This document shows, one piece after another, positions 1,334 through 61,055 of a DNA stretch of 64,000 nt. The first letter of the stretch is position 1, and each line of letters begins with the position of its first letter. Both the position numbers and the translations under genes were made by a program. Location: positions 1,094 through 65,093 of the forward strand of contig JBBABB010000001.1 in the NCBI GenBank assembly GCA_041657885.1, written 5' to 3'. The notes under the pieces are model-generated. The model made no database searches. It was not told the origin of the DNA and was given only the letters and a program-made list of their open reading frames with translations. The stretch comes from Minisyncoccota bacterium. GTDB taxonomy: Bacteria > Patescibacteriota > Minisyncoccia > Phycocordibacterales > UBA9973.

Positions 1334-2923
1334 ATGAAAATAAAAGAAATTAAAATTATCAACAATACAGAAACTTGTGCTGATATAAACCTAATTCTAG
1401 GTGCTAACAACACGGGTAAAAGTACTTTTATAAGAGAGCTTGAAGAAGCAAGTAAAACCTGTCAAATTGGGTTAAAGAACAAATGGATAACAGGCGTAAA
1501 ATTTGAGGCGTCTGGAATCAAGACTAGATTTGATAGTTTATTTCCCGGAGTATCTGCCTTTGCTGTTTACGAGGGAACAGAACAAGAAATAAATAGTATT
1601 GGAGGAGCAAATATTTTTAGTTCAAACTGGAATAATGAAGTTTTTCAAGCAATGAAGGCAAAGCTGGATACTTCTGAAACATATGAAGCTATAACTCATC
1701 CATCAAAAGATAGGGATTGGCATTATTTTAGTTTTGTTAATAATATGTCTGTTTCTATGGAAAACTGTGATTCAAGATTATCAGGACCATTTTTTACTCA
1801 AATAAACAGGGTGGATGAAAATTATAAAGATATAGTTCATTACTTTTATTCACAAAACTCTCTTTTTCAAAAAATATCAGATCATATTAAAGATGTTTTT
1901 GGTATAGAAATTATTTTTGACGACTTAGAGCAAGGACAAAAAGATATCCGCTTAGCACCTGATGTTGCTAAACCTGCTTCTTTTCCAAACCGTAGAAATG
2001 AAGGTCAGTTTTGGGCAGAACATTCTCCGATATTAGCTTCTCAAGGTGATGGCTTGAAAGCTTACTTGAAAATATTATACGCTCTCTTTAATCCCGCAAA
2101 GGATGTGATCATAATTGATGAACCTGAAGCATTTTTACATTCACCTCAAAGAAGAAGTTTAGGTAAATTCATTGCCGATAACGCATCTAGTGGTAAGCAA
2201 ATATTTATTTCTACTCATGATAGTGAATTTTTAAGAGGAGTTCTCACAAATACTACCTGTGATACACAAGTAGTTCATTTAAAAGAGAAACTAGGTAAAA
2301 GAAGCTATACAGTTAATAGAACACCTTCAAATACCAGAACGAGAAATAATAATGAACTCATGCTTAATTCTTATTTTAATAAATTAACCGTATTATGCGA
2401 AGCCGAAGACGATAGAGTAATTTATCAATATGCAAGTCAATCTTTTTTCCCTACACCGACGGTTGATATTCATTTTCTTGGACTCAATGCTAAAAGTGAT
2501 TTGTTTCTAATATTCAAACATTTACAGAGTTTAGAAATTGAAACCGTAGGAATAGTGGATATCGATGTTCTTTATTCAGGAGAATGTTTAGGGCTTTCTC
2601 TTAACCAAACAGAAAAAAATTTAATAGAGGAGGTGAAAAACCTCTTAAATGCTTTATCACAAGCAGACAGAGATATATTTAAGGAAAATGGGGTTGTCTC
2701 TCTGTCGTCCAATGCTTCACTTAGTCAGAAGGTTCAAGATGCAATACAAATAGCGAAGAAATACAAAATTTTTATTGTACCCATAGGAGAACTTGAGAGT
2801 TGGCTAGATACACCAACCGCATCAAAAAGAAAAGTGCAGGCTATGAAAAATGAGATCGACACAAGTCCAACGACTACAAAAAAATCAACCTTAAAAAAAT
2901 TCATAGGAGAAGTTATTTCTTAA
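1334..2923 (+). CDS. OLD-family / PARIS-like ABC-type ATPase fused to a Toprim nuclease (putative anti-phage or abortive-infection effector)
   Basis: Walker A ILGANNTGKST, Walker B VIIIDEPEAFLHSPQ and H-loop ISTHDSEF. The C-terminal half carries Toprim-like acidic motifs (VLCEAEDD, GIVDIDVLYSGE). It is coupled to the upstream HTH gene. Confidence 0.6.
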   Translation: MKIKEIKIINNTETCADINLILGANNTGKSTFIRELEEASKTCQIGLKNKWITGVKFEASGIKTRFDSLFPGVSAFAVYEGTEQEINSIGGANIFSSNWNNEVFQAMKAKLDTSETYEAITHPSKDRDWHYFSFVNNMSVSMENCDSRLSGPFFTQINRVDENYKDIVHYFYSQNSLFQKISDHIKDVFGIEIIFDDLEQGQKDIRLAPDVAKPASFPNRRNEGQFWAEHSPILASQGDGLKAYLKILYALFNPAKDVIIIDEPEAFLHSPQRRSLGKFIADNASSGKQIFISTHDSEFLRGVLTNTTCDTQVVHLKEKLGKRSYTVNRTPSNTRTRNNNELMLNSYFNKLTVLCEAEDDRVIYQYASQSFFPTPTVDIHFLGLNAKSDLFLIFKHLQSLEIETVGIVDIDVLYSGECLGLSLNQTEKNLIEEVKNLLNALSQADRDIFKENGVVSLSSNASLSQKVQDAIQIAKKYKIFIVPIGELESWLDTPTASKRKVQAMKNEIDTSPTTTKKSTLKKFIGEVIS

Positions 2924-2942
2924 AATAAAACTACAAAGGGAG

Positions 2943-2966
2943 TTTGCCGATTCGCAAATCGGCAAA
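2943..2966 (+). terminator. Stem-loop (9-bp stem, CGCA loop) immediately after the OLD-like gene stop
   Basis: tttgccgatt cgca aatcggcaaa forms a perfect hairpin. There is no strong U-tract, so the terminator assignment is tentative. Confidence 0.35.
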
Positions 2967-3263
2967 GGTTAACACGCGCATGGGCGTGGGTGGGTGAGAA
3001 GCGAATACTTGGAGCTTCGCAAGGCCGGAGGCTGGCGAGCCGAGGCGGGGTCGCAGGATTTTTCCGCAGAAAAATACCTGTGACAATGACTAATACGTAC
3101 GACCTCCCCTCCAAAAAACTCTCCCTCCAAAAAATCTTGGGCTTTTGAATTTTTGAACCTCACCCTAAAAAAACGCGAAGCGTCCGGAAACCCTTTGCCA
3201 CACTACGCAGAGCTTCGCTCTGCTCGCGAAAATTTTTCTGAAAAACCCTTGAGTTTGATTGCG

Positions 3264-3496
3264 GAGTATCTTTTAAAATCAGCTAGAACCTATTTTAGTA
3301 AAAATTGTTCCTAAAAACCTATCAAACGAACTAATGCGCACGCTCCGCGTGCCTCTTAACTTTAAACTAATTACCACGCTCTACTAATGTGCTAATTCCA
3401 AATGGACTCAGAAAATGGAAACAAATATTTTGGGGATTAGGATTTCCATTTTCCTCGACTGTATCTTTTGGCGAGATTTCAAATTCTGCCCGCAGG
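3264..3496. repeat. Left copy of a ~233-bp inverted repeat bracketing the R-M module
   Basis: The reverse complement of 8829-9060 matches this segment with about 5 differences (1 indel, ~4 substitutions). It contains internal hairpins (gcacgc..gcgtgc; aaaatggaaa..tttccatttt). Confidence 0.85.
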
Positions 3497-3572
3497 AGGG
3501 GTTTGGGGAGGAATGCGGGCGAAATTTATTGGTAGGCTATGGAAAGAATGCAAAAAATGTTAGAATTACTCT

Positions 3573-4412
3573 GTGGAATATATAAACAAAGTTTATTTTA
3601 AAGATGCTAGAAAAATGACAGAATTACCAGACAATTCTGTACAGTTAATTGTAACTAGTCCTCCTTATTTCAATATAAAAGATTATTCTCTTGACGGATA
3701 TCAAAAAAATAAAAAAGCTCAAAAAGCAACTGGTCAAATTGGTGATATCGCAGATTATGAAAAATACATTGATGAAATGGTTTTGGTTTGGAAAGAATGT
3801 GAGCGTGTATTAAAACCGAATGGAAAGTTAATAATTAATACACCACTTATGCCGATGTTAAAAAAAAATCTGATCACTCATTACAACAGGCACATTTTTA
3901 ATATTAACAACGACATAGAACACTCAATATTAAAAAAAACTAATTTGTTTTTAATGGATGTTTATTTTTGGAATAGAACGAATCCGAGCAAAAAACTAAT
4001 GTTCGGTAGCTATCCATATCCGCGAAATTTTTATGCTCAAAATACAACAGAGTTTATAACTGTGTTTGTGAAAGACGGAATTCCAGAAAATAATCTCCCA
4101 GCAAAAATTAAAGATAGAAGTAAATTGAGCCAAAAAGAATGGGTAGAATTTACTAAGCAAATTTGGAATATTCCAATCCCCGGCAAAGGCGATTTGGCTT
4201 TTGGAGAACATTCAGCACTAATGCCAGAAGAAATTGTTAGGCGTTGTGTTAGATTATTTACCTTTGTTGAAGATGTTGTCTTAGACCCATTTGCAGGATC
4301 AGGGACTACTTTAAAAGTAGCAAAGGAATTAGAAAGAAATTTTGTCGGGTATGAGATTTCTAAAAGTTATGAGGATATTATAAAATTAAAGTTGCGACCT
4401 AAATTATTTTAA
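3573..4412 (+). CDS. DNA methyltransferase, beta-class amino-MTase (N6-adenine or N4-cytosine); M subunit 1 of a Type II R-M system
   Basis: Motif IV TSPPY lies N-terminal to motif I DPFAGSGTT, which is the beta permutation. The likely true start is ATG at 3615 (MTELPDNS), since the track start at 3573 is a GTG. Confidence 0.85.
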   Translation: MEYINKVYFKDARKMTELPDNSVQLIVTSPPYFNIKDYSLDGYQKNKKAQKATGQIGDIADYEKYIDEMVLVWKECERVLKPNGKLIINTPLMPMLKKNLITHYNRHIFNINNDIEHSILKKTNLFLMDVYFWNRTNPSKKLMFGSYPYPRNFYAQNTTEFITVFVKDGIPENNLPAKIKDRSKLSQKEWVEFTKQIWNIPIPGKGDLAFGEHSALMPEEIVRRCVRLFTFVEDVVLDPFAGSGTTLKVAKELERNFVGYEISKSYEDIIKLKLRPKLF

Positions 4413-4415
4413 TTT

Positions 4416-5198
4416 ATGCTTAAAATTAACAAAATCTATAATTTAGACTGCTTCGACTTTTTAAGTAAAGTTGATGATTCGTCAATCAATCTTGCTGTTA
4501 TTGATCCCCCTTATAATATGAGCAAGGCAGATTGGGATACATTCAAATCACATAAAGACTTTTTGGATTTTACTTACAAATGGATAGACGCATTATTACC
4601 GAAATTAACACAAAATGGAAGTTTGTATATTTTTAACACACCATTTAACTCAGCATATATTTTACAATATCTTACTTCAAAAAATATGGTTTTCCAAAAT
4701 TGGATTACTTGGGACAAAAGAGATGGGCTTGGAACATCAAAAAGAAAATATAGCAATGGACAAGAATCAATACTATTTTTCACAAAATCTGATAAACATA
4801 TTTTTAATTACAACGATATAAGAGTTCCTTATGAATCCACAGACAGAATAGAACACGCCGTTAAAAAAGGAATCTTAAAAAATGGTGAGAGATGGTTTCC
4901 TAACCCGAACGGAAGATTTTGTGGAGAAGTTTGGCACATCACTAGTGAACGACACAAAAGAAAAATAAATGGGAAAGTTCAAAAAATGGAACACTTAACA
5001 CCTAAGCCGTTGGATTTAATTGAAAGAATTGTAAAAGCAAGTTCTAAAAAAGGAGATTTAGTTTTGGATTGCTTCGTCGGTAGCGGAACGACAGCAGTTG
5101 CTTCAAAAATACTAGGTAGAAATTTTTTGTGTTCCGATATAGACAAAAAATATGTTAAATTAGCAGAAAAAAATTTATATTTATATGCCGATAAATAA
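4416..5198 (+). CDS. Second beta-class amino DNA methyltransferase (M subunit 2)
   Basis: IDPPYN (motif IV) is followed C-terminally by DCFVGSGTTAVAS (motif I). It starts 3 nt after the M1 stop. Confidence 0.85.
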   Translation: MLKINKIYNLDCFDFLSKVDDSSINLAVIDPPYNMSKADWDTFKSHKDFLDFTYKWIDALLPKLTQNGSLYIFNTPFNSAYILQYLTSKNMVFQNWITWDKRDGLGTSKRKYSNGQESILFFTKSDKHIFNYNDIRVPYESTDRIEHAVKKGILKNGERWFPNPNGRFCGEVWHITSERHKRKINGKVQKMEHLTPKPLDLIERIVKASSKKGDLVLDCFVGSGTTAVASKILGRNFLCSDIDKKYVKLAEKNLYLYADK

Positions 5199-6901: not shown

Positions 6902-6929
6902 TACTTACAACTGAATAGTTCGATCAAGA

Positions 6930-7367
6930 GTGGTGGTAGAGAATTGGCTCGATGACCCCACAGCAACCTGCTTCGGTAAGGTGCTAAATCCAACCAGACA
7001 CGAAAGTGTCAGGAAAGATGTGTTTGTGCCTAGTCCGCACAAAAACTCTTTCCTCTTTATTAGAGGAATTTTTTATTTTATGAAGAAAATACCAGAAGGT
7101 TTAGTTAGGTGTGAAGTATGTGGAGAGTATAAAGGTGAGGTAAAAGAGAAAGACTTAAATTGGGGCGACTCTTGTTTTTACAAAGCAGAAGTAGAAAAGA
7201 GTGAAGAATACCTCTCTGTGTCTTGTCTTTGCGACGGCATCTTATGTCATAAGTGTAAGAAAAATAAAATTCATAGGCCTATATCAAATTCTTATGATGA
7301 GATTGATAATGACATTGGTCATTGGCCGTGGTTCACCGGAATGATGCCATGTAAAGAGTGTAAATAA
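6930..7367 (+). CDS. Small cysteine-rich zinc-ribbon protein; likely real start at ATG ~7080 (MKKIPEGL...)
   Basis: CEVCG...SCLCDGILCHKCKK...PCKECK gives three CxxC pairs. The upstream 150 nt of the track ORF looks like a structured 5' UTR rather than coding sequence. Confidence 0.4.
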   Translation: MVVENWLDDPTATCFGKVLNPTRHESVRKDVFVPSPHKNSFLFIRGIFYFMKKIPEGLVRCEVCGEYKGEVKEKDLNWGDSCFYKAEVEKSEEYLSVSCLCDGILCHKCKKNKIHRPISNSYDEIDNDIGHWPWFTGMMPCKECK

Positions 7368-7644: not shown

Positions 7645-8337
7645 ATGCCCGACGACCAAAACGCATCTCAAAATCCAATTTCCGAAGAAAACCCTTCACC
7701 TACAAGCCCCCAAGAGTCCATAGAGCAAGGCACTGAAAACACAGCACATTCTGAACCTTCCGTTGCACCTCTTGATGCCCTAGAAAGCTCACCGAACGAC
7801 TTTTCAGTGAAAAGTAATGATATACCACCCTCAAATTCTACCCCTACGGAAGCAGTAAATGAGCCAGAAACTCTAGAAAAACAAGTCCCAAATGAACCTA
7901 ACCCCGAGCCAGTTTCTGAACCCATAGAATCTCCTGAACCCGAAACGGCTCAAATACCGGTATCTGAGCCGTTGAACTCTACGAGCGAGCCGTTAGGCGA
8001 GCAAGTAGAATTCCCAGAAACTAAAACAGAGACAAAACCAACCCCCGAAGTAAAACCTGAACCAGTAGAAACTAACCCCATTCTTGTTTCAACTAAACCC
8101 TCCCAAAAAAATTTATGGCAAAGATTTCTAAGTAAAATACAAATTGGAAAAAGAAAAAAGCTGGATCGTGTTATGACTTTATTTCTTAAACAATCTAAAA
8201 TCACAAACGACGAAGTCGAGAAATTTCTTCATGTCTCGGATGCAACTGCAACTAGATACCTTTCACAATTGGAGAAAGAAGGAAAAATAAAACAAGTTGG
8301 TAAAATTGGAAAAGCAGTTTCGTATTCCAGAATTTAA
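7645..8337 (+). CDS. Protein with a Pro/Glu/Ser-rich disordered N-terminal half and a C-terminal winged-HTH domain
   Basis: About 150 aa of low-complexity PEPV/SEP repeats precede LDRVMTLFLKQSKITNDEVEKFLHVSDATATRYLSQLEKEGKIKQVGKIGKAVSYSRI, a DeoR/MarR-like wHTH. Confidence 0.5.
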   Translation: MPDDQNASQNPISEENPSPTSPQESIEQGTENTAHSEPSVAPLDALESSPNDFSVKSNDIPPSNSTPTEAVNEPETLEKQVPNEPNPEPVSEPIESPEPETAQIPVSEPLNSTSEPLGEQVEFPETKTETKPTPEVKPEPVETNPILVSTKPSQKNLWQRFLSKIQIGKRKKLDRVMTLFLKQSKITNDEVEKFLHVSDATATRYLSQLEKEGKIKQVGKIGKAVSYSRI

Positions 8338-8418
8338 TTTTCGGGGAGTCGCCGTCCTTCTTTTCCTCACGGCGGTTTAGTGCGCGAACGGGAGGGTGGG
8401 TCAAGCACGAGTATTTCC

Positions 8419-8730
8419 GCCTCGGGCATTTCCGCTAGGGTGTCCATGACTAAAGGACGAGTGCCGCCCAGCTGGTGCAATACTAAAATCTAAAGGCGAA
8501 AGCTATACACACTAAACACGGATATGAATAAAGTAGAGTGGGGATGGCGAGGGCAGACTGCTGGTAATCCAGCAGAGCCCGACCCGGGGAGAGGAAACTT
8601 CCTCTCCCCAAGAAGTTGCGGGCAATCTAGTGAACGGCTCATTTACTGGTATTTGAGCCGTTCGGATATTTTGCTTGCCCGCTCATAGGCATCTAGGCAC
8701 TCGTAGCCCTAGCGGAAATGCCCGAGGCGG
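8419..8730. repeat. Second MITE-like or structured element, closed by a perfect 24-bp inverted repeat
   Basis: ccgcctcgggcatttccgctaggg (8420-8443) is the exact reverse complement of 8706-8729. The interior holds hairpins such as gggagagga-aactt-tcctctccc. Confidence 0.5.
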
Positions 8731-8781
8731 ATGCCGAGGGTGCACCTCAAAACTTTAAATAACCACCAAAGTAGAAAAATG

Positions 8782-8791
8782 GTATAATGCC
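8782..8791 (+). promoter_or_regulatory. Extended -10 promoter (TGgTATAAT) reading into the right inverted repeat
   Basis: tggtataatg is a perfect extended -10. A transcript would cover 8829-9060, which is complementary to the plus-strand RNA of the left repeat. Confidence 0.35.
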
Positions 8792-8828
8792 CGAGACAAT
8801 GATTTTTGTATTTTGATTTTGAGTTTTT

Positions 8829-9060
8829 CCTGCGGGCAGAATTTGAAATCTCGCCAAAAGATATAGCCGAGGAAAATGGAAATCCTAATCCCCAAAATTT
8901 TGTTTCCATTTTCCGAGTCCATTTGGAATTAGCACATTAGTAGAGCGTGGTAATTAGTTTAAAGTTAAGAGGCACGCGGAGCGTGCGCATTAGTTCGTTT
9001 GATAGGTTTTTAGGAACAATTTTTACTAAAATAGGTTCTAGCTGATTTTAAAAGATACTC
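8829..9060. repeat. Right copy of the ~233-bp inverted repeat
   Basis: See the left copy at 3264-3496. Its outer end lies 6 bp from the cysK-like stop codon. Confidence 0.85.
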
Positions 9061-9066
9061 ATTAAA

Positions 9067-10068
9067 TTAAATATAAAAATTTGCTAATTCTTGAGTTATT
9101 TTTTCATCTAAAAGTTCCTTTTCAGCCATCCAGTCATCATTAAAGGCGTGGGTAAGATAACTTTCACCACTGTCGCCAATAATTAAGACCATATTTTTTA
9201 TTTTTTCTGAAATCGGTTCTCCATTAATAAATTTCATCGCATAATAAAGAACCATTCCACTTGAATCTCCAACTAGCAATCCTTTCTGTTCAGCAAAAAA
9301 GCGCATAGTATTAAATGCTTCCTTATCCGCAACATAATCATGTTTATCAAAAATAGAAGTATTAATATTTTTAGGTGGAATAGCTCCGGCTGGATATCCT
9401 GGGCCGGAAATAAAATAACCATGTCCGCGTGGGGAGAAATGACTGGAACCTTTTGGCTCTAGGGCGATTACCTTAGTATGTCCATGTTCTTTTATATATC
9501 GGCCAGATCCAGATAGGGAACTACCAGTACCGATTGTTCCAACTAAATAATCAGCATCAGGTACTTGTTCAAAAATTTCTTTACCCAAAGTGTTGTAGTA
9601 GCCCTTGGGGTTTTCAGGGTTGTCGTACTGGTCAAGATTGATTCCGCCTTTTTCTTCAGCCAGTCGCTTAGCAGTTTTGCGACGGACATCAACCAAATGC
9701 CCACCCTTTGGGTCTTCTTCGTCACTACAGAAATGTAATTTGCCGCCATAGGCCTTGATTGACCTAAGCTTATCGGCTGGAGCATGTTTGTCAACGATAG
9801 CGGTGAATTTATATCCCCGAGCGGCTGACAGCATTGCTAGGGCCTTGGCTGTATTTCCAGAAGAAGATTCAAAAATTTCCATTCCTTTTTTTAATTGGCC
9901 AGATTGTTCGGCTGCATTCATTAAGACTTGAGCAGTCCTATCTTTAAAACTTCCAGCTGGGTTAAAATATTCCAGCTTTAAATAAATCTTCCAATCCGAC
10001 CTAGTGGTCGATATTTCAAGCATTGGGGTTTCCCCGATGAGTTCATCAATACTTTTATTAATAGTCAT
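9067..10068 (-). CDS. cysK: PLP-dependent cysteine synthase / cystathionine beta-synthase family enzyme (fold type II)
   Basis: SFKDR lysine motif, GNTAKALA, and a Gly-rich loop GTIGTGSSLSG. Confidence 0.75.
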   Translation of the reverse strand: MTINKSIDELIGETPMLEISTTRSDWKIYLKLEYFNPAGSFKDRTAQVLMNAAEQSGQLKKGMEIFESSSGNTAKALAMLSAARGYKFTAIVDKHAPADKLRSIKAYGGKLHFCSDEEDPKGGHLVDVRRKTAKRLAEEKGGINLDQYDNPENPKGYYNTLGKEIFEQVPDADYLVGTIGTGSSLSGSGRYIKEHGHTKVIALEPKGSSHFSPRGHGYFISGPGYPAGAIPPKNINTSIFDKHDYVADKEAFNTMRFFAEQKGLLVGDSSGMVLYYAMKFINGEPISEKIKNMVLIIGDSGESYLTHAFNDDWMAEKELLDEKITQELANFYI

Positions 10069-10119: not shown

Positions 10120-11034
10120 GTGATGGACAAAGAAAAAATTCAGAAAGAAATAGAAGAACTTGAGGCACAAACGGCGCAAGGGAATTTTTGGGATGATAAA
10201 ATTTCTGCACAAGCGACAATCAAACGGATTGCATTTTTGAAAGATGAAATTCTAGGAAATCAAAAATATGACAAAGGGAATTGCATACTTTCAATTCTTT
10301 CAGGCGCTGGGGGTGATGATGCCGAAGATTTTTCGGCGATGTTGCTTCGAATGTATACAAAATATTTTGAGAGAAAAGGTTGGTCTTGGGAGGTAATCCA
10401 TGAAAATAAAAATGACAACGATGGATATCGCAATGTTTCTGTTGAAGTTTCTTCTCCCCCTGCGAAGGGGGAGTGGCCGAAGGTCGAGGGGGTCTATGGC
10501 ACTTTAAAAAATGAATCAGGTGTACATCGATTAGTTCGAATATCTCCATTTAATGCGAATGCCAAAAGGCACACTTCTTTTTCTCTCGTTGAAGTGATTC
10601 CAGAATTTGCGAAAGATGATAGCGCCATAGAAATCCCCCCAAATGACCTTCGGATTGAGCTTTCAAAGTCAGGTGGCCCCGGTGGGCAAAATGTAAACAA
10701 ACGCGAGACCGCTGTCAGGGTAGTCCATTTGCCAACCAATCTGTCTGTTCATGTAACATCAGAGCGTTCTCAAGAACAAAACAAAGAAAAAGCCATTGAA
10801 ATGCTAAAAGGTAAACTTTTCAAGAAAAGAGAAGATGATAAAAAGAGAGAAAAAGACGGAATGTCCATCTCAAAGACGACAGATATAGAATGGGGAAGTC
10901 AAATTCGCTCTTATGTCCTTCATCCATATAAAATGGTCAAAGACCACCGCACGGGAGTTGAAATTAATAATGTTGACTCTGTTCTTTTGGATGGTCAGAT
11001 AGATGAATTTATTGAAACAGAACGCAATTTGTGA
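10120..11034 (+). CDS. prfB: Peptide chain release factor 2, with a short N-domain and no programmed frameshift
   Basis: SPF tripeptide, GGQ motif (GGPGGQNVNK) and GVHRLVRISPF. The N-terminal region is contiguous in a single frame. Confidence 0.85.
   Translation: MMDKEKIQKEIEELEAQTAQGNFWDDKISAQATIKRIAFLKDEILGNQKYDKGNCILSILSGAGGDDAEDFSAMLLRMYTKYFERKGWSWEVIHENKNDNDGYRNVSVEVSSPPAKGEWPKVEGVYGTLKNESGVHRLVRISPFNANAKRHTSFSLVEVIPEFAKDDSAIEIPPNDLRIELSKSGGPGGQNVNKRETAVRVVHLPTNLSVHVTSERSQEQNKEKAIEMLKGKLFKKREDDKKREKDGMSISKTTDIEWGSQIRSYVLHPYKMVKDHRTGVEINNVDSVLLDGQIDEFIETERNL
10450..10490 (+). repeat. GC-rich palindromic element (CTCCCCC-TGCGAA-GGGGGAG) inserted in-frame within prfB
   Basis: It encodes SSPPAKGEWPKVE between the conserved VEV and GVYGTLK..GVHRLVR segments. 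The hairpin core is 10454-10473. Confidence 0.6.
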
Positions 11035-28861: not shown

Positions 28862-29338
28862 TTATTTGTATGGTTTTTCTAATTTGAAAGTTTTAATACA
28901 CTTATCTAATTTAATTTCCTTAATATAATCTTTAAATTCTTTTGGCATAGGAGATGGTCCCACCCAAACACTTTTTTGAATCATAATGTAATTAAATTTT
29001 TTCAAATGCCATCTCAACCATTCCCTATGAGCTTTCTTCTCTGTTGGTACATCAAACATCACCAATAGAGTTTTATCTTTGGAAATATTTTCTGGTCGAT
29101 CGAATTGTTTTAATGAATCAAATTTTCTTTTCACATATTCTTTCCCATATTTTGATAAAACTATTCCCGCCAATTCTTTTTCAATTAAACCTCTTTTCCT
29201 CAATCTACTTATAGTGTTATACATGACATCTTTTTTGTATTTCTTAAAACGGGGGATTCCAAAAAGATTTACCCTAACTCCTTTGTAGTTAAGTTCGGTA
29301 TTCCACAACTCTTCTAATAGTTCACTTACAATAGACAT
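28862..29338 (-). CDS. Small winged-HTH plus Cas2/VapD-like-pattern protein (paralog A)
   Basis: N-terminal YNTISRLRKRGLIEK (wHTH-like) and C-terminal LLVMFDVPTEKKAHREWLRWHLKKFNYIMIQKSVWVG. The ORF at 40491 is a paralog. The gene is bracketed by REP-like palindromes. Confidence 0.35.
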   Translation of the reverse strand: MSIVSELLEELWNTELNYKGVRVNLFGIPRFKKYKKDVMYNTISRLRKRGLIEKELAGIVLSKYGKEYVKRKFDSLKQFDRPENISKDKTLLVMFDVPTEKKAHREWLRWHLKKFNYIMIQKSVWVGPSPMPKEFKDYIKEIKLDKCIKTFKLEKPYK

Positions 29339-35141: not shown

Positions 35142-38100
35142 ATGGATAAGAACAACGAAAAGAGCCCACCCGCCTCCGCACAAGGCTATGGCGAGGCAAA
35201 GTCAGCGTTACCCGCCTCTGCAGAACGCTCCGGCGTGGCAAAGCGAGAAGAGGCAATTTTACAATTCTGGAAAGAAAATAAAATTTTTGAAAAAAGTTTA
35301 GAAAAAGAAGCACCAAAAGGAAAGTATGTTTTTTATGATGGTCCTCCTTTTGCTTCTGGTCTTCCTCATTATGGACATATACTTGGCAGTACGGCTAAAG
35401 ATGTAATTGGCAGATATAAAACTATGTGCGGATTTAATGTTCCACGACGTTGGGGTTGGGATTGTCATGGTTTACCAATTGAAAATATTGTTGAAAAAGA
35501 TTTGGGAATTTCTGGAAAGAAAGCCATTGAAGCACTGGGAATTGATAAATTCACCGAACATGCGCGCAGTAAAGTTTTAACTTATGTAAGCGAATGGAAA
35601 AAGACGATAGATCGTATGGGGCGCTGGGTAGATTTTAATAATTCTTACAAAACTATGGACAACACTTTCATTGAAAGTGTTTGGTGGGCTCTTGGTGAGA
35701 TGAATAAAAAAGAATTACTTTATGAAGGAGTCCGAGTGCTTGCTTATTGTCCTCGTTGTGAGACACCGATTGCAAATTCTGAAATTGCCATGGATAATAG
35801 TTATAAAGATATTACAGATATTTCTGTATATGTGAAATTCCAACTTACAGAGGCTTCACATTCTCAAATTTCTTCGTGCTTTACCCTAAAGGGCTCCGAC
35901 GCGACGAAGAAATTAGAAAATGTTTTGACTATTTATCTATTGGCTTGGACGACGACTCCGTGGACGCTTCCCGGGAACACTGCTATTGCTATCAATAAAA
36001 AATTAAATTATGTATTAGTAAAAAATAAAATAGAGACAGGAGAAGAAATATTAATAGTGGCAAAAGAACTATTTGAAGGATTAAAAAATAAATTTAACAA
36101 TCCTGAGATAGTAAAAGAAGTGAAAGGCAGTGAACTTATAGGTCTTTCTTATGAACCATTATTCTCATATTATAAAAATAAAGACGTGGCAAAAAATCCA
36201 AATATTTGGAAAATTTGGCATGCCGATTTCGTAACGCTTGATAAGGGAACGGGTGTTGCTCATCAGGCTCCAGCTTTTGGAGAGGATGATATGGACCTTG
36301 CCAAGAAAAATAATGTTCCATTTATTCGTCATGTTGAACCGAATGGTGATTTCTCAAAAGAGATTACCGATTTCCCAAATGTAAAAGTCAAACCCAAAGA
36401 AGACCATCAATCTACAGATATCCTTATTATCAAACACCTTGCCCATGCTGGGCTTCTGTTTGCCAAAGAAAAAATTATTCACTCATATCCGTATTGTTAT
36501 CGTTGCGAGACACCGCTTCTTTACTATGCGTTGCCATCTTGGTTTGTGAATATTCAAAAAGTTAAAAATGATTTAGTAAAAAAAGGTGAAGAGATGAATT
36601 GGATTCCAGCGCATTTGAAAGAAGGACGTTTCAAAAATACAATGGAAAGTGCGCCTGATTGGACCATATCTAGGAATCGTTATTGGGCAAGCCCACTTCC
36701 TATTTGGAAAAATAAAGAGGGTAGGGTGATGGTAGTAAATTCACTTGAAGATTTAAAAATAAAAACAAAAAAATCAGGGAATAAATATTTTGTGATGAGG
36801 CATGGAGAATCAGAAGGAAATCTCAATGGACTTGTCAGTTCTTCTTATGAAGAAGATGATAATTTAACGGAAAATGGAAAAAGACAAGCTGAAGAAGCAT
36901 CTATAGGGTTAAAAAATAAAAAAATTGATTTAATTTTTTCTTCTCCCATTAAAAGAACCAAAGAAACAGCTGAAATTATGTGTTCCGCATTAGGTTTAGA
37001 TAAAAAAAATATTATTATAGATGATAGAATTCGTGAAATTTCTATTCCTGATTATGAAGGAAAAACATGGACAGAGTTTCGTAAAGATTTTCCTAATACA
37101 ATAGAAAACTTTTATCATATTAAAGAAAACAATGAATCATACAATGATGTTAAAAAAAGAGTTATGAATTTTCTTTATGAAATAGAAGAAAAATATAAAG
37201 ATAAAAATATTCTGATTGTTACTCATGCAGGTCCAATATGGCTTGCAATTTCAGGGGCTATGGGTTTTGATGCTAAAGAATCACTGAATATAAAGAATAT
37301 AGATACTTCTGGTAAAAATGCGGAATATCGAGAATTAGATTTTACTTTTATTCCTCACAATGAAAATTATGAGCTTGATTTACATAGGCCATATATTGAT
37401 TCTGTAACACTTGTTGATGAAAAAGGGGAAGAATATAAAAGAATTCCAGAGGTTGTGGATTGTTGGTTTGAGTCTGGCTCAATGCCATTCGCGCAAGACC
37501 ATTATCCATTTGAAAATAAAAATTGGCAAAAAGAAAATTTCCCAGCAGGATTTGTGGCTGAATATATAGCTCAAACAAGGACATGGTTTTACTATACTCA
37601 CACTATTTCAACAATACTTTTTGGGCATGCTCCATTTGAAAATGTGGTAACGACAGGAACTATTTTGGCAGAGGATGGGAGTAAAATGTCAAAATCAAAA
37701 AATAATTATCCAGACCCTTGGCTTTTGTTTGATAAATATGGAGTGGATGCTCTTCGTTTTTATCTGATGTCTAGTACTTTAATGAAAGGGGAAGATGTAA
37801 ATTTTTCTGAAAAATTAGTTCAAGAAGTTGCCAGTAAAATAGTTAACCGTTTTGACAATGTCATGGCTTTTTATGAATTGTATAGGAGTAAAGAAGTAGA
37901 AAGTAGTAAGGAAAAAATAGTAAGTAAAAATATTTTAGACCAGTGGATAATCGCGCGAACTTCACAATTTATTAATGAAGTGAAAGACAGTATGGAAATT
38001 TATGATATGGCACAAGCTGCAAAACCTTTTGATTTATTTGTTGAAGATCTCTCAACTTGGTATTTGCGTCGTTCGCGTGAAAGAATAAAAAATGGAGATG

Positions 38101-38789
38101 AAAATGCAAAACAGACACTATATTTTGTTTTAAAAACCGCCATTCAACCCTTCGCACCATTTATGCCTTTTATTGCAGAAGATATTTGGCAGAAATTAAA
38201 ATTTAATTCTGATCCAGAGAGTGTCCACTTAACAAACTTTTTCTTAGATGTTGAAACTAAAAAAATTGATAATAAAATTATCGAAGAAATGCAAAAAGCG
38301 CGTGAGGTTGTGACGCTTGGATTACAAGCTCGGCAGAAAGCGGGGATTCCGGTGAGACAACCGTTAAAAGAATTACGAATTACGAATTACGAATTACGAA
38401 AAGAATACGAGGAGATAATAAAAGATGAATTAAATGTAAAAGAAATTAAAATAATTAAAGGCGAAGAAGAGAAAGTTGAATTGGATACAAATATTACAGA
38501 AGAATTAAAGAAAGAAGGGCAATATCGCGAGCTTGTTCGAGCCATACAAGATATTCGTAAGAAAAATGGATTAAATCCAAATGATATTGTAACTCTCCAG
38601 ATTTCTGCTTCAACAGAAGGACAAGAATTGATAAATAAATTTAAAAAAGAATTAATGAAGGCAGTTAGTGCAAAAGAAATACAAATTAAAGAAAATAATG
38701 GGGTACCTGCCCGCAATACTTCTGGTACAGCTGATGCAGGCGGGGAAATAAAAATTGATGAATTAATATTTATAATTAGTCTTATATAA
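35142..38789 (+). CDS. ileS: Isoleucyl-tRNA synthetase carrying an embedded histidine-phosphatase-superfamily domain
   Basis: Class I motifs HYGH and KMSKS, plus WTISRNRYW and DCWFESGS. A ~190-aa insert between these two blocks (~36760-37340) carries RHGESEGN and THAG motifs. Confidence 0.9.
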   Translation: MDKNNEKSPPASAQGYGEAKSALPASAERSGVAKREEAILQFWKENKIFEKSLEKEAPKGKYVFYDGPPFASGLPHYGHILGSTAKDVIGRYKTMCGFNVPRRWGWDCHGLPIENIVEKDLGISGKKAIEALGIDKFTEHARSKVLTYVSEWKKTIDRMGRWVDFNNSYKTMDNTFIESVWWALGEMNKKELLYEGVRVLAYCPRCETPIANSEIAMDNSYKDITDISVYVKFQLTEASHSQISSCFTLKGSDATKKLENVLTIYLLAWTTTPWTLPGNTAIAINKKLNYVLVKNKIETGEEILIVAKELFEGLKNKFNNPEIVKEVKGSELIGLSYEPLFSYYKNKDVAKNPNIWKIWHADFVTLDKGTGVAHQAPAFGEDDMDLAKKNNVPFIRHVEPNGDFSKEITDFPNVKVKPKEDHQSTDILIIKHLAHAGLLFAKEKIIHSYPYCYRCETPLLYYALPSWFVNIQKVKNDLVKKGEEMNWIPAHLKEGRFKNTMESAPDWTISRNRYWASPLPIWKNKEGRVMVVNSLEDLKIKTKKSGNKYFVMRHGESEGNLNGLVSSSYEEDDNLTENGKRQAEEASIGLKNKKIDLIFSSPIKRTKETAEIMCSALGLDKKNIIIDDRIREISIPDYEGKTWTEFRKDFPNTIENFYHIKENNESYNDVKKRVMNFLYEIEEKYKDKNILIVTHAGPIWLAISGAMGFDAKESLNIKNIDTSGKNAEYRELDFTFIPHNENYELDLHRPYIDSVTLVDEKGEEYKRIPEVVDCWFESGSMPFAQDHYPFENKNWQKENFPAGFVAEYIAQTRTWFYYTHTISTILFGHAPFENVVTTGTILAEDGSKMSKSKNNYPDPWLLFDKYGVDALRFYLMSSTLMKGEDVNFSEKLVQEVASKIVNRFDNVMAFYELYRSKEVESSKEKIVSKNILDQWIIARTSQFINEVKDSMEIYDMAQAAKPFDLFVEDLSTWYLRRSRERIKNGDENAKQTLYFVLKTAIQPFAPFMPFIAEDIWQKLKFNSDPESVHLTNFFLDVETKKIDNKIIEEMQKAREVVTLGLQARQKAGIPVRQPLKELRITNYELRKEYEEIIKDELNVKEIKIIKGEEEKVELDTNITEELKKEGQYRELVRAIQDIRKKNGLNPNDIVTLQISASTEGQELINKFKKELMKAVSAKEIQIKENNGVPARNTSGTADAGGEIKIDELIFIISLI
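38371..38398 (+). repeat. GAATTAC heptamer x4 in-frame inside ileS
   Basis: gaattacgaattacgaattacgaattac encodes ELRITNYEL. Confidence 0.6.
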
Positions 38790-40490: not shown

Positions 40491-40982
40491 ATGAACAATA
40501 AATATAGAAATACTTTTTCTGAAGAGCTAATTGCTTTTTTGTTTTCGTGTAAATCTCATAAAATGCGAAGAGCGATTCTATATGAATTTGCTAAAAAAAG
40601 ATTTGAGATGGAAAAGTCTGTTTATAATCAGAATATATATCGTCTAAAAAAGAATGGTTTTTTAATTCAGGACGAAGATGTTTTTTTTCTTTCTTTAAAG
40701 GGGGTTTCTTATTACACTAATCCGTATAGACATATTAAAGAAAAAATAGATAAGAAAAATAAAATAATTATTATTTTTGATATACCGGAAAATAAAAGAA
40801 AAGTTAGAGAATGGATAAGAAGCCAAATAAAATTTTGGGATTTTGAAATGATCCAGAAGAGTGTATGGGTGGGGTATGGGCCATTACCATCTGAATTTAT
40901 GAGTCGTTTAAGGATGTTGGGAGTATATGATGGAGTGAGGATTTTTAACGTACAAAGTAAAAATAGTACCGTAACGAAATAA
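40491..40982 (+). CDS. Small winged-HTH plus Cas2/VapD-like-pattern protein (paralog B)
   Basis: IIIIFDIPENKRKVREWIRSQIKFWDFEMIQKSVWVG matches paralog A (28862-29338). It is flanked by ~21-bp direct repeats (40460-40481 / 40985-41004). Confidence 0.35.
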   Translation: MNNKYRNTFSEELIAFLFSCKSHKMRRAILYEFAKKRFEMEKSVYNQNIYRLKKNGFLIQDEDVFFLSLKGVSYYTNPYRHIKEKIDKKNKIIIIFDIPENKRKVREWIRSQIKFWDFEMIQKSVWVGYGPLPSEFMSRLRMLGVYDGVRIFNVQSKNSTVTK

Positions 40983-46823: not shown

Positions 46824-47891
46824 ATGGACGAAAAGGTTAAAAATATGCATATAAGTATTTCTACAAATACTCTAATAAAAATACTTCTTTTGGGGGTACT
46901 GGTTTTTGTTGTTATAAAATTATTTAATGTCGTTCTTATTATTCTTGTGGCCATAGTGCTTGCTTCTTTTGTGGAATCAGCCGTTAGGAAACTTAAGCGT
47001 TTTATAAAGAATCGTTCCATTGCAGTTTTCCTTATATATGTCATAACTCTCGGCATAATAGTTGGTTTGTCATCTGTATTCATGCCTGTTTTTATTGAAG
47101 AAATGTCTGCCCTTGTCACATCACTTTCCCAATATATTCCTCACGGTAGTATTTTAAATACTTTTCAAGCTGATACTATTTCCGGGGCAAAAGATGTGGT
47201 TTCTAGCTTATCACACAATGCATCTTTGAGTGATGTTGTAAAAAGTGTGCAGAGTTTAGTCTCTGGTTTGTCTGGTGGTTTTATGGATATTTTTAATGGA
47301 GCTTTTGGTGGTATTCTTAATTTTATACTGATTGTAATTATTTCTTTTTACTTATCGGTTACAGAAAAAGGTATTGAGAATTTCTTGCGTATTATTACTC
47401 CAAGAAAAAGCGAAGAATATATAATTGACTTATGGCAAAGGACAGAACACAAAATCGGGTTATGGATTCAAGGTCAGATGCTTCTAGGACTTATTATTGG
47501 TGTTTTAGCTTATCTAGGACTTACTATCATAGGGGTTAAGTATTCACTTGTTCTTGCCATATTAACTGCATTTTGTGAGCTTGTGCCATTTGGAATATAT
47601 TTGGCTGTAATTCCAGTTGTTCTCTTTAGTTTTTTGGGCGGTGGAATGACGATGGCGATGCTTTCTTTCGGATTATATTTTATCCTTCACCAATTTGAAA
47701 ATTATTTAATATATCCTTTAATTATAAAAAAAGTTATTGGCATATCACCACTTGTGGTTATTCTTTCTATTATTATCGGAGCAGAACTCGCAGGATTTCT
47801 AGGTGTGATTTTGGCAATACCCGCGGCCGTTTGTTTATTAGAATTTTTAGATGATCTTGAAAAGAAAAAGATTCTTTCAAAGACGGAGTAG
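46824..47891 (+). CDS. AI-2E family transporter (PerM/YhhT-like permease)
   Basis: Eight predicted TM helices with the typical family topology. Confidence 0.6.
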   Translation: MDEKVKNMHISISTNTLIKILLLGVLVFVVIKLFNVVLIILVAIVLASFVESAVRKLKRFIKNRSIAVFLIYVITLGIIVGLSSVFMPVFIEEMSALVTSLSQYIPHGSILNTFQADTISGAKDVVSSLSHNASLSDVVKSVQSLVSGLSGGFMDIFNGAFGGILNFILIVIISFYLSVTEKGIENFLRIITPRKSEEYIIDLWQRTEHKIGLWIQGQMLLGLIIGVLAYLGLTIIGVKYSLVLAILTAFCELVPFGIYLAVIPVVLFSFLGGGMTMAMLSFGLYFILHQFENYLIYPLIIKKVIGISPLVVILSIIIGAELAGFLGVILAIPAAVCLLEFLDDLEKKKILSKTE

Positions 47892-49401
47892 TATGCAAAA
47901 ATCATTTTTTCTAACAACAACGCTCCCTTATATAAATGCGCCACTTCATATGGGTAATGCGCTTGAATTTGTGCGCGCTGATACGATTGCCCGCTACAAA
48001 AAGCTTCTTGGTTTTGATGTATATTTTAATACGGGAACAGATGAGCATGGAATAAAAAATTATCTAAAAGCCGAAGAAAAAAAGATATCGGTAGAAAATT
48101 TTGTGGACCTTGGTTTTGCAACTTTTAAAGAGCAACTTAAAATGTTTGGAGTAAGCGATGATATACATTTCGTTCGCACAACAGATAAACATCACGAATT
48201 CGCAGCGCAGGAATTTTGGAAGAAAGTAGCAAACAACGGTTACATTTATAAGAAAAATTATGAAGCTAAATATTGTGTTGGTTGCGAGAGTGAAAAAACT
48301 GATTCGGAGTTGAATGATGCAGGTGAATGTCCAGAGCACCCGGGTAAAAAACTTGAGACAATAAATGAAGAGAATTATTTTTTTAAATATTCAGCCTTCC
48401 AACAACAACTTTTAGATTTTTATGAGAAAAATCCAAGTTTTGTAATTCCAGATTTTCGTTTTAATGAAATGAAAAATTTTGTCAAAAATGGATTACGTGA
48501 TTTTTCAATTTCAAGGTTAAAATCAAAAATGCCTTGGGGAATAGAAGTGCCAGGAGATAAAAATCACGTAATGTATGTTTGGTTTGATGCACTTGTAAAT
48601 TATATTTCAACGCTTGGTTGGCCTAAAACACGTGCTAATGGCACGTGTTCGACCGAACATTCATCTACTGATGAATGTTTTAGGCCAGATGAAGAAGATT
48701 TATTTACTAAGTATTGGGTCAATGGTACTCCCACGCAGTATTGCGGAAAAGATAATACTCGTTTTCAAGGTGCAATGTGGCAAGCTATGCTTATGGCAGC
48801 AGGATTACCGAACTCGCACCAAATAGTTGTGAATGGATTTATCACAGCCGAAGGAGGAGTACGAATGTCAAAAACTATTGGGAACGTAGTTGACCCAAGG
48901 GATATTGTAAAAGAGTATGGGACAGACGCATTGCGATATTTTCTCTTGCGAGAAGTCGGAAGTTTTGAAGATAGTCCATTTACAATTGAACGTTTTAAAG
49001 ATGCGTACAATTCAGGTCTTGCAAACGGGCTGGGGAATTTGGTGAGTCGCGTGATGACTATGGCTGTGAGTTATGGAGTAAAACTTTCAGGTATTGATTT
49101 GGAAGTTAAATATTATACAAATCCAATTGAAGAATTAGAAAGTTTTGATATAAATAAATTTATAAATAAAATTTGGGCAGATTTAAAAAGTTTGGATGAA
49201 TATATACAAAAGAACGAACCATTTAAGAAAATAAAAATAAACAAAGAAGAAGCCAAAAAAGATGTTTATTATTTACTTTTTCATTTGTATAAATGCGCAT
49301 TGGCTATTGAACCGTTGTTGCCTGAAACATCAAAGAAAATTCAAGAATTAATAAAAGAGAATAAAAAACCAAAGCAACCATTATTTTTAAGGAAAGAATA
49401 A
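47851..49401 (+). CDS. metG: Methionyl-tRNA synthetase
   Basis: PYINAPLHMGNALE (variant of the HLGH motif), zinc knuckle CVGCESEKTD...ECPEHPG and KMSKS variant VRMSKT. The likely start is 47893. Confidence 0.85.
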   Translation: MILKRKRFFQRRSSMQKSFFLTTTLPYINAPLHMGNALEFVRADTIARYKKLLGFDVYFNTGTDEHGIKNYLKAEEKKISVENFVDLGFATFKEQLKMFGVSDDIHFVRTTDKHHEFAAQEFWKKVANNGYIYKKNYEAKYCVGCESEKTDSELNDAGECPEHPGKKLETINEENYFFKYSAFQQQLLDFYEKNPSFVIPDFRFNEMKNFVKNGLRDFSISRLKSKMPWGIEVPGDKNHVMYVWFDALVNYISTLGWPKTRANGTCSTEHSSTDECFRPDEEDLFTKYWVNGTPTQYCGKDNTRFQGAMWQAMLMAAGLPNSHQIVVNGFITAEGGVRMSKTIGNVVDPRDIVKEYGTDALRYFLLREVGSFEDSPFTIERFKDAYNSGLANGLGNLVSRVMTMAVSYGVKLSGIDLEVKYYTNPIEELESFDINKFINKIWADLKSLDEYIQKNEPFKKIKINKEEAKKDVYYLLFHLYKCALAIEPLLPETSKKIQELIKENKKPKQPLFLRKE

Positions 49402-50038: not shown

Positions 50039-51007
50039 ATGCCTAAATACATTGATATACATTCACACGTAAATTTCAAAGCATTTGATGAGGACAGGGA
50101 TGCGGTTATTCGTCATGCCCTCGACAATGATACTTGGGTCATAAATATCGGCACACAATTTGATACTTCAAAAAAGGCAGTTGAGATGACGAACGATTAT
50201 AAGGAAGGAATTTATGCAACAATTGGGCTACATCCGATTCACACTGATGTTTCGTATCATGATGAAAATGAATTGGGTGCTGAGGCTAGCGAATTTATCT
50301 CTCGTGGAGAAATTTTTGACAAAGAAAAATATAGAGAGCTCGCAAAACTTGGTAAGGTTGTCGCAATAGGGGAATGCGGACTTGATTATTATAGAATGGA
50401 ACTAGAATCTATTGAAAAACAAAAAGTTGCTTTTATTGCTCAGATTGAATTGGCTAATGAACTTAATCTTCCACTTATGCTCCATGTTAGAAATCCTTCA
50501 CCCCTCAGTCCCTTGGACAGCTCCTTACAGGAGCAGTACACCTTTCGCATTTTGATTACAAAAATGCTCAAGGTCTTGCACTTGGGTCCCTTTCCCAAGC
50601 TCACCCCTTCGCAGGGGAGCAAGAATGCTTATGCCGATGTTGCTGATTTATTAAAAAAATATTCAAAAAGAGAAATAAAAGGTGTGTCACATTTCTTTGC
50701 AGGAAATGTGGAAGATATGAAAAGATTTATTGAGATAGGTGTATATGTTTCTTTTGCTGGTCCAATAACTTATAAACCAAAACCAGAAATTTGTGATTAT
50801 ATAAGTGTTATAAAAGAAACCCCCGTGGATATGATATTGGCTGATACAGACAGCCCCTATGTCGCTCCAGTGCCTCACAGGGGAGAGAGAAATGAACCAA
50901 GCAATGTTTGTGATATAGTAGCTAAAATAGCTGAAATTAAAGAGTTATCGAAAGAAGAAGTTGCAACAGTAATTCTCTCTAATGCAAAAAAACTCTTTGA
51001 CTTATAG
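50039..51007 (+). CDS. tatD: TatD-family metal-dependent DNase with an in-frame insertion
   Basis: IDIHSHV N-terminus and GECGLDY. A ~46-aa GC-rich insert lies at ~50487-50625. Confidence 0.8.
   Translation: MPKYIDIHSHVNFKAFDEDRDAVIRHALDNDTWVINIGTQFDTSKKAVEMTNDYKEGIYATIGLHPIHTDVSYHDENELGAEASEFISRGEIFDKEKYRELAKLGKVVAIGECGLDYYRMELESIEKQKVAFIAQIELANELNLPLMLHVRNPSPLSPLDSSLQEQYTFRILITKMLKVLHLGPFPKLTPSQGSKNAYADVADLLKKYSKREIKGVSHFFAGNVEDMKRFIEIGVYVSFAGPITYKPKPEICDYISVIKETPVDMILADTDSPYVAPVPHRGERNEPSNVCDIVAKIAEIKELSKEEVATVILSNAKKLFDL
50487..50625 (+). repeat. GC-rich palindromic element cluster inserted in-frame within tatD
   Basis: cttgggtccctttcccaag and ccccttcgcagggg hairpins encode PSPLSPLDSS...LTPSQGSKN. 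Confidence 0.6.
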
Positions 51008-52129: not shown

Positions 52130-52147
52130 ACCCCTCCGCCTACGGCA

Positions 52148-52167
52148 CCTCCCCTTCGCAGGGGAGG
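52148..52167. repeat. GC-rich palindromic element (CCTCCCC-TTCGCA-GGGGAGG), intergenic between ssb and rpsR
   Basis: Same core as the elements in prfB, tatD and the infB-rbfA spacer. Confidence 0.6.
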
Positions 52168-52205
52168 AAGAATACAAAAAATTAAAAATTTAACAAATCA
52201 CTAAC

Positions 52206-52406: not shown

Positions 52407-52424
52407 AAGAATCACCACCCCCTG

Positions 52425-54272: not shown

Positions 54273-54274
54273 AT

Positions 54275-61048: not shown

Positions 61049-61055
61049 AATTTAT

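Follow-up and report, generated by a model that had tools for sequence, protein, structure and literature searches.

How does release factor 2 (RF2) come to contain, in frame, a stretch of GC-rich palindromic DNA that most of its close relatives lack? The question is raised by the prfB gene on a 64,000-nucleotide stretch of DNA (hereafter the window, taken at its full length) from a bacterium of the candidate phyla radiation (CPR, Patescibacteria) belonging to Candidatus Paceibacterota. The window has a GC content of only 33%, and the perfect palindrome CTCCCCC-TGCGAA-GGGGGAG lies within the prfB open reading frame (ORF) at positions 10454-10473 of the + strand. An earlier note, made from the sequence alone, had reported this palindrome as an in-frame insertion of about 13 residues (39 nt) at a place where other RF2 proteins are contiguous. 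As laid out below, the palindrome is the core of a longer repeat, and the locus is probably best understood as a dispersed non-coding repeat of the triplex type that was copied into a tolerant turn of RF2, where it is selfish or neutral.

The palindrome is present as described, and an alignment with 120 close homologues (72-100% identity) bears out the contiguity of RF2 elsewhere. Most of these homologues are 295 residues long and read EVxG-KN-xYGTLKNESGVHRLVR in the relevant stretch, whereas the window protein reads ..EVSSPPAKGEWPKVEGVYGTLK.., with SSPPAKGEWPKVEGV in place of xGKNx. One sequence from Candidatus Paceibacterota (P0001) is 100% identical to the window RF2, and the extra segment is absent in the nearest homologue (P0002, 87% identity) as well as in P0004 and P0005. 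The size given earlier needs correction: 15 nt in the empty allele L203 (ATTGGCAAAAATGCA, codons IGKNA) stand against 45 nt in the window, so that five ancestral codons have become fifteen and RF2 has grown by 10 residues (30 nt) net. Solved RF2 structures, when aligned, likewise leave a gap of 10 residues at the insert. In an AlphaFold2 model of the window RF2 (mean predicted local distance difference test score, pLDDT, of 66) the insert links a strand and a short helix as a predicted coil, and pLDDT falls below 50 at residues 116-122; the SPF motif follows some 20 residues downstream. Filled and empty sister pairs of RF2 genes exist.

The palindrome is not alone in the window. Its pattern was found three times against about 0.02 expected by chance, and the actual repeat unit is 49 nt rather than the 20 nt of the palindrome. 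A covariance model built from 20 copies (R1) and used to scan the window returned four full copies, each with an E value below 1e-12 and each aligning over all 49 nt with 10448-10496. Membership of the prfB element in a multi-copy family is thereby established. The palindrome cores of the other copies, all of which had been listed before, are present at 61122-61141 (exact, reverse orientation), 61056-61075, 52148-52167 and, with two mismatches, in tatD at 50600-50619. Weaker R1 matches were obtained at 50497-50540, 50586-50626 (tatD), 54781-54821, 63280-63321, 63935-63968 and 52412-52452. In tatD, the Pfam match to TatD_DNase is split in two, and the alignment to Thermotoga maritima TatD (1j6o) breaks exactly at the insertion. 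An RluF-like pseudouridine synthase gene (54349-55098, - strand) carries about ten extra residues (IPLPNPPLSKGRG), encoded by a short-loop triplex motif, just ahead of its GRLD motif. Perfect GC-rich hairpins number 21 in the window, compared with 0.6 expected from Markov simulations.

Within the 49-nt unit a fixed order of parts is apparent: a pyrimidine arm is followed by a GNRA loop, the purine arm, a mini-hairpin (P2) and finally the mirror image of the purine arm. The two arms would form hairpin P1, which in the prfB copy has an 8-bp GC stem and a GNRA loop and is predicted to be very stable. A scan of the window for intrastrand triplex motifs yielded seven perfect class II motifs, or eight with one mismatch, against 0.03 expected. 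For a wider sample, one genome per species was scanned for the 18-20-nt core with a pattern that did not require the G-rich tail. More than 119 loci were returned, 19 of them from Patescibacteria, in which the entire 49-nt layout is conserved; many of the Patescibacteria copies lie inside long ORFs, in either orientation, and encode peptides such as SPPAKGE, TPPSQGE, LPLRRG and PFAGEE. The G-rich tail also follows the hairpin in Rahnella, cyanobacteria, Bacteroidota, Verrucomicrobiota, Planctomycetota, Acidobacteriota and others. A GGGG within 45 nt downstream of the hairpin was present in 100 of 140 cases, versus 46 in the mirror control, and the spacing between hairpin and tail peaks at 4, 7 and 14 nt. 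The longer spacers fold into P2, whose sequence varies among copies without loss of pairing, both partners having changed at four of four pairs. Among 135 distinct elements from many phyla, the mirror of the purine arm occurs downstream in exact form in 56 and with at most one mismatch in 98; in the same elements an exact direct repeat was found five times and a reverse complement three times. Moreover, arm and tail covary, GGGGGAG occurring with GAGGGGG and GGGGAGG with GGAGGGG. The mirror architecture and the pairing of P2 are therefore established features, and the prfB-type layout corresponds to the design of a class II purine-motif intrastrand triplex, a fold that the DNA may adopt to judge from its base order.

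A G-quadruplex formed by the tail was considered and rejected: short-loop variants have four G-tracts and prfB-type copies only two long ones, and it is a triplex, not a quadruplex, that explains the mirror covariation of arm and tail. Descent from a tRNA T-arm or an rRNA fragment was likewise discarded, as the arms have the wrong polarity and tRNA and Rfam scans gave no match to the element. No Rfam family matched it at gathering thresholds over the whole window, nor at E values up to 10 for 60900-61300.

Table 1 The prfB element and its parts, further copies in the window, and inserts at the same turn in other RF2 genes.
Feature	Position	Strand	Evidence and remarks
prfB (release factor 2), host gene	10120-11034	+	304 aa; PCRF and RF-1 domains (Pfam); intact ORF
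Full 49-nt element in prfB	10448-10496	+	Residues ~111-126 (..SSPPAKGEWPKVEGV..); R1 66 bits, E 3e-17
Pyrimidine arm Y, CTCCCCCT	10454-10461	+	Sequence; triplex-motif scan
Loop 1, GCGA (GNRA-type tetraloop)	10462-10465	+	
Purine arm R, AGGGGGAG	10466-10473	+	Watson-Crick partner of Y
Loop 2, mini-hairpin P2, TGGCCGAAGGTC	10474-10485	+	GGCC-GAA-GGTC; fold and compensatory changes
Mirror tail GAGGGGGT, candidate reverse-Hoogsteen third strand	10486-10493	+	8/8 triads with R allowed (G·G-C, A·A-T, T·A-T)
In-frame insertion in tatD, 43 residues (aa 153-195)	50495-50623	+	Two degenerate reverse-orientation copies (50497-50540, 50586-50626); R1 E 5e-4 and 7e-4
Full copy, ssb-rpsR spacer	52125-52173	-	R1 56.7 bits; 4-C variant, arm GGGGAGG, tail GGAGGGG; perfect triplex motif 52130-52167
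Variant copy directly after rpsR stop codon	52412-52452	-	Read on + strand: hairpin, then TTTT
Short-loop variant CCCTCCCC-TTACTAA-GGGGAGGG-TT-GGGGAGGGG	54781-54821	+	In frame in RluF-like gene on - strand
Diverged full copy, left half of infB/rbfA tail-to-tail doublet	61050-61098	+	R1 51.7 bits; triplex motif 61057-61096
Full copy, right half of infB/rbfA doublet	61099-61147	-	R1 65.8 bits
Imperfect short-loop variant, intergenic	63280-63321	+	R1 match
Inverted pair of short-loop variants	63906-63935; 63940-63970	-; +	Hairpin and triplex-motif scans
Turn insert LPAGRQG			From CCTGCCTGCCGGCAGGCAGG; twice in RF2 of L172
Turn insert PPTGG			From TCCGCCAACTGGCGGA
Turn insert PASSAG (PASSAGKEG type)			From CCCGCCTCTTCGGCGGG
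Turn insert PPLSKGRVGE			From CCTCCCC-TTAGTAA-GGGGAGG-GTT-GGGGAGAGG; short-loop triplex motif

Repeats of this design, described as BoxC, PIT and TMECO, have been known since the 1990s. We compared the prfB element with them in detail. The three names, BoxC, later PIT (Hoyne and Maher 2000) and later TMECO, denote one element with the consensus CCCTCNCCC N3-6 GGGNGAGGG N3 GGGNGAGGG (PMC4666352), which is treated in particular by Holder et al. (2015, PMC4666352), whose survey for intrastrand triplex motifs took in 5246 prokaryotic genomes. In vitro, single-stranded TMECO DNA folds into a class II purine-motif triplex; RNA cannot form purine-motif triplexes (PMC4666352). All 23 copies in Escherichia coli K-12 are intergenic and inverted pairs are common; the element has no known association with mobile elements and had neither promoter nor terminator activity in earlier work, and it marks loci of raised rearrangement between strains and is abundant in some Enterobacteria and cyanobacteria (PMC4666352). 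The elements of the window share with it the order of blocks, the GC-richness, the many near-identical copies in both orientations and in inverted pairs, the lack of a linked mobile-element gene, a presence that varies between relatives, and the same core hairpin and tail in Rahnella, cyanobacteria and many other phyla. With a stem inside the 6-15 nt range, the prfB copy has the three blocks of a class II motif and eight of eight triads allowed, and the excess of mirror over direct repeats (56 versus 5 of 135) points the same way. Over-representation is evident as well (7-8 motifs in 64 kb versus 0.03), as are inverted pairs (61050/61099 and 63906/63940). The loops are where the two part company. 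Loop 1 of the prfB copy has 4 nt but loop 2 has 12, outside the 1-6 nt of ITxF and the 0-10 nt of Hoyne et al., and in the other long-form copies loop 2 measures 10-15 nt; the window variants at 54786, 52414, 63906 and 63940 do have short loops. In the long-form element loop 2 is a covarying mini-hairpin of 10-18 nt, the stems comprise 7-8 triads rather than the 9 of TMECO, and the order CTCCCCCT-GCGA-AGGGGGAG-N12-GAGGGGGT does not fit the consensus CCCTCNCCC..GGGNGAGGG..GGGNGAGGG. In contrast to the intergenic copies of E. coli K-12, those in the CPR host include in-frame ones (prfB, the RluF-like gene, tatD). We thus state that the element is a variant of the BoxC/PIT/TMECO intrastrand-triplex repeats in a new host group and in a new, in-frame position. 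A literature search found, within the literature accessible, no description of in-frame palindromic elements in CPR/Patescibacteria.

Another family of small palindromes has to be weighed here. REPs are GC-rich imperfect palindromes of 20-40 nt with high copy number (PMC3116915, PMC3733652), and the prfB copy might be a leftover singlet of a REP/REPIN-type repeat whose movement depends in trans on a RAYT, an IS200/IS605-like tyrosine HUH transposase that would act on single-stranded hairpin DNA and is encoded by a single-copy gene, usually with REPs on its flanks. The element is indeed small, GC-rich and palindromic, its copy numbers are lineage-specific, and inverted doublets are frequent, tail-to-tail or head-to-head (61050/61099 in the window; L114, L117, L085 and L050 elsewhere). 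The 98-nt doublet 61050-61147 gives a single long hairpin when folded (-53.7 kcal/mol, z -5.7), as REPIN doublets do, and intragenic REPs are documented in other bacteria (PMC3733652). However, the GTAG or CGTC tag is missing at both ends of the element, which are T-rich/CTCCCC on the 5' side and GGGGT(C/G)TA on the 3' side. No RAYT or HUH gene was found in the 64-kb window, none recurs beside the 119 loci elsewhere, and BoxC/TMECO is reported to be unassociated with mobile elements (PMC4666352). Neither the mirror tail nor the second hairpin is a REP feature, and the model leaves the tail without a role; besides, the event in prfB was a replacement and not a clean insertion. Taken together, we consider a REP/RAYT origin improbable.

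Relatives of the window prfB illustrate how the repeat, once present, has fared. Between the RF2 genes of L200 (P0008) and the window, identity is 75%, or 52% at third positions, and yet 42 nt of the insert agree exactly and occupy the same codons, the spike of identity being confined to the insert. A long gene-conversion tract between the two was ruled out, as identity is down to background again only a few nucleotides beyond the insert. Two further genes, L201 and L202, keep frame and length and have lost the P1 palindrome and its pairing. Other RF2 genes therefore hold one identical and two decayed copies. The earlier note had named relatives with the peptide and without palindromic DNA as a finding that would speak against insertion, and L201 and L202 are such relatives. 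We read them as products of decay after insertion and not as the ancestral state, because alongside them stand many empty alleles and, in L200, a copy that is intact and identical. In the pair P0042/P0062 (96.6% nucleotide identity), 21 nt are replaced by 42 nt and flanking codons are changed too, as if a stretch had been patched in from a different filled allele. Among other CPR prfB neighbourhoods, 434 kb in all, the 49-nt family was met only inside RF2 of L200-L202; it is therefore lineage-restricted. Small free-standing genes with a GIY-YIG nuclease domain (86 and 104 aa) lie near prfB in L200 (180-440) and on the P0025 contig, both of which carry the type-A insert found in the window; this may be coincidence.

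The turn of RF2 that received the element is a recurrent site. Inserts of at least four residues occur there in 30 of 194 homologues, while only few inserts are found elsewhere in RF2. They range from 4 to 22 residues and their peptides are unrelated, with at least eight unrelated sequences at the same turn in other lineages; where DNA exists, they derive from GC-rich palindromes of several unrelated families in AT-rich genomes (examples in Table 1). In a neighbour-joining tree calculated with the insert masked, the carriers are scattered and each has insert-less sisters. Filled alleles lack the conserved GKN codons, and empty alleles are therefore not simple deletions of filled ones, from which it follows that inserts were gained several times. 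Across 347 kb of AT-rich CPR DNA around prfB, 107 perfect GC-rich hairpins were counted against 12 expected, about half of them in long stop-free frames. This recurrence of unrelated hairpins at one turn, like the G-rich tail that mirrors the purine arm, is not mentioned in the earlier note. A second palindrome family, CCTGCCT(G/T)CCGG(C/T)AGGCAGG, encodes LPAGRQG or LPTGKAG and is seen in infB (61755-61775) and in RF2 of L170 and L172; it recurs in CPR genes. The infB hairpin was rejected as a further insertion, since the linker has the same length as in E. coli IF2.

From these observations the following course of events can be proposed. A DNA-level event would have placed the repeat into codons of a surface beta-turn of RF2, turning five codons into fifteen, and the insert would be translated as about ten extra, probably disordered residues. 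As stop-free, in-frame DNA in a loop that tolerates length changes, it would persist as selfish or neutral DNA and later decay at the nucleotide level with the reading frame retained. Hairpin or triplex folding of single-stranded DNA during replication, repair or transcription may promote its copying, be it via template switching, patch repair from another copy or some hairpin-specific enzyme, and the peptide itself would be without function. Template switching and short-patch repair would fit the replacements and the published link between such structures, polymerase arrest and instability. Classical transposition is disfavoured, because no target duplication was seen, the event was a replacement and no enzyme was found.

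Several observations weigh against this proposal. Fold energies of single copies differ little from those of dinucleotide shuffles (z -0.4 to -1.4). Shuffled sequences fold almost equally well, as runs of C and G pair anyway, and fold energy alone is therefore no evidence; we rely instead on copy number, covariation and mirror symmetry. The calculations (ViennaRNA) consider Watson-Crick pairs only, so that a triplex fold lies outside their model, and in vivo footprinting of TMECO did not detect a triplex (PMC4666352). Filled/empty pairs show the replacement of 15-21 nt (15 by 45 nt in the window; 21 by 42 nt in P0042 versus P0062) rather than a clean insertion, and no consistent target-site duplication of the kind that, together with terminal inverted repeats, marks a MITE was seen at the ends of copies. 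This type of event fits patch repair better than classical transposition. Pfam scans revealed no transposase, HUH or TnpB gene among the window ORFs, and when the ORFs lying up to 1.2 kb from 119 copies were compared all against all, no gene turned up repeatedly as a neighbour. P2 is still paired in all four type-A RF2 inserts, by means of three different sequences, which could reflect some constraint. Finally, the P2 variant GGCC/GGTC is exclusive to the window and L200, even though empty alleles are phylogenetically nearer. This private variant would require transfer from prfB to prfB, site-specific insertion or selection at the DNA level.

In principle, selection could act on either of two levels: on the prfB mRNA or on the RF2 protein. 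On the first, the insert would be a cis-acting mRNA hairpin kept for ribosome pausing, transcript protection or regulation of RF2, possibly in place of the missing +1 frameshift autoregulation. The window prfB lacks the programmed +1 frameshift site, as judged from the ORF and the alignment to solved RF2s, and the very stable P1 would be suited to such a task. Between the window and L200 the insert is 100% conserved at synonymous sites, compared with 52% at third positions of the genes, and compensatory changes have kept P2 paired in L201 and L202. Yet the element is absent in about 85% of close orthologues, the nearest included, P1 has decayed in L201 and L202, and the same element resides in unrelated spacers and in other genes in both orientations. 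The eight or more unrelated sequences at the same turn of other lineages also argue against a specific mRNA signal, and published PIT/TMECO elements have shown neither promoter nor terminator activity (PMC4666352). A selected hairpin in the prfB mRNA therefore appears quite unlikely to us.

On the second level, the insert would be an adaptive extension of the RF2 loop, for example for contact with the reduced CPR ribosome, and the palindromy of its DNA would be incidental. The recurrence of inserts (30 of 194 homologues) would be in line with this, as would a KGEW.K.EG motif that is partly conserved in type-A inserts while the DNA palindrome decays. Against it stand the unrelated peptides of 4-22 residues, the derivation of each insert from GC-rich palindromic DNA in AT-rich genomes, the majority of homologues without any insert, the low-confidence coil predicted by AlphaFold2 and the presence of the same DNA in non-coding spacers. 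We give an adaptive loop little chance. An assembly or binning artefact, such as a chimeric contig or a misassembled repeat in prfB, can practically be dismissed: contigs of metagenome-assembled genomes can be chimeric at repeats, and this element is repeated, but the reading frame is intact, the RF2 sequence is colinear on both sides, and the same-codon insertion recurs in assemblies made independently, with other pipelines and from other samples (ENA L200, Logan L201 and L202, JGI P0025).

The proposed copying of a non-coding, selfish or neutral repeat into RF2 would have counterparts in other systems. The optional G+C-rich clusters of yeast mitochondria are short palindromes in a very AT-rich genome, occur in frame in var1, differ between strains and spread in a conversion-like manner without an encoded enzyme. 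They are organellar and belong to a different sequence family, and we know of no mirror-repeat tail in them. Rickettsia palindromic elements (RPE), to which the prfB insertion had been likened, are elements of about 100-150 bp that encode conserved peptides (Ogata et al. 2000, as summarised in PMC10969869). The likeness is right with regard to behaviour and wrong with regard to family. In both cases a multi-copy, stop-free palindromic repeat of a small AT-rich genome is tolerated in frame in unrelated and often essential genes, has intergenic copies too, decays after insertion and is compatible with protein function. RPEs, however, encode conserved peptides of 30-50 residues, occur in Rickettsia only and lack the character of GC-rich homopurine/homopyrimidine mirror repeats; the prfB element comprises 49 nt with a net contribution of about 10 residues and resides in Candidatus Paceibacterota. 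The cyanobacterial SDR elements, given as 21-27 nt long and confined to the Nostocaceae in papers citing their description (Elhai et al. 2008, cited in PMC3116915 and PMC5861425), resemble it, as described there, in being dispersed, apparently mobile repeats of less than 50 nt with hairpin potential and no known enzyme.

Our analysis also yielded observations on the host gene and on the remainder of the window. The prfB ORF starts 51 nt past a divergent upstream gene and is followed by ftsE, ftsX and pyrG. Compared with model RF2s, the encoded protein is missing about 60 residues, ~23 at the N-terminus and ~40 in domain 1. The variant at 52412-52452 may have an additional role as a terminator, judging from its run of T. 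A MetRS-like gene (47851-49401) contains at aa 259-267 a palindrome with a 9-bp stem, AACACGTGC-TAATG-GCACGTGTT, encoding KTRANGTCS, which may be another small insertion. The IleRS-like gene at 35142-38789 (1215 aa) has a 29-residue GC-rich segment at its N-terminus (aa 7-35), and a complete His_Phos_1 domain (aa 550-723) splits its class I synthetase domain. A 235-nt inverted repeat (3264-3497 and 8828-9060; 171 nt at 98% and 85 nt at 91% complementarity) brackets a 5.3-kb segment with two N6_N4 DNA methyltransferase genes (3573-4412 and 4416-5198), three ORFs without a Pfam match and an S-adenosylmethionine (SAM) riboswitch (6918-7024); this could be a mobile or invertible restriction-modification cassette. 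The regions 2920-3580 and 8330-9070 are free of ORFs and have 50-60% GC in a 33% GC genome. Within 8340-9066 the fold z-score is -8.5, with a perfect long-range pairing of 25 nt (8416-8440 with 8707-8731), and no Rfam family was found at E values up to 0.1; a large structured RNA of an undescribed kind may lie here. At about 54230-54350 gene orientation turns from + to - close to the maximum of the cumulative GC skew, a pattern suggestive of a replication terminus; a hairpin with a 16-bp stem, flanked by A and T runs, lies between convergent genes at 54270-54304. Two paralogous small proteins with a PaaX_M/Cas2-like domain are encoded at 28862-29338 (-) and 40491-40982 (+), and no CRISPR array was found in the 64-kb window.

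A bolder view holds that triplex-type repeats are actively mobile in CPR bacteria, that the RF2 beta-turn serves them as a homing-like target and that their spread, through structure-driven template switching or short-patch conversion, needs no enzyme encoded by the element. We regard this as rather doubtful. If it were true, the same unit of 42-49 nt, with its private P2 variant, would have entered prfB alleles that are only 75% identical, or been converted into them, replacing the same five codons each time. Such repeats would then supply ultra-small bacteria quite generally with loop insertions in their proteins, and they would offer a tractable system for the propagation of enzyme-less hairpin or triplex DNA.

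The filled, empty and decayed alleles of a single RF2 site in public data provide material for studying the movement of BoxC/PIT/TMECO repeats. Peptides such as SPPAKGE, TPPSQGE, LPAGRQG and PPLSKGRVGE in CPR proteins are to be taken as translated repeat DNA and not as lineage-specific functional motifs, and these segments, rich in proline, glycine and charged residues, bear on annotation, alignment and structure prediction. The prfB element is a case beyond Rickettsia and an indication that, where genomes are reduced, the surface loops of core translation proteins can be reshaped by selfish palindromic DNA.

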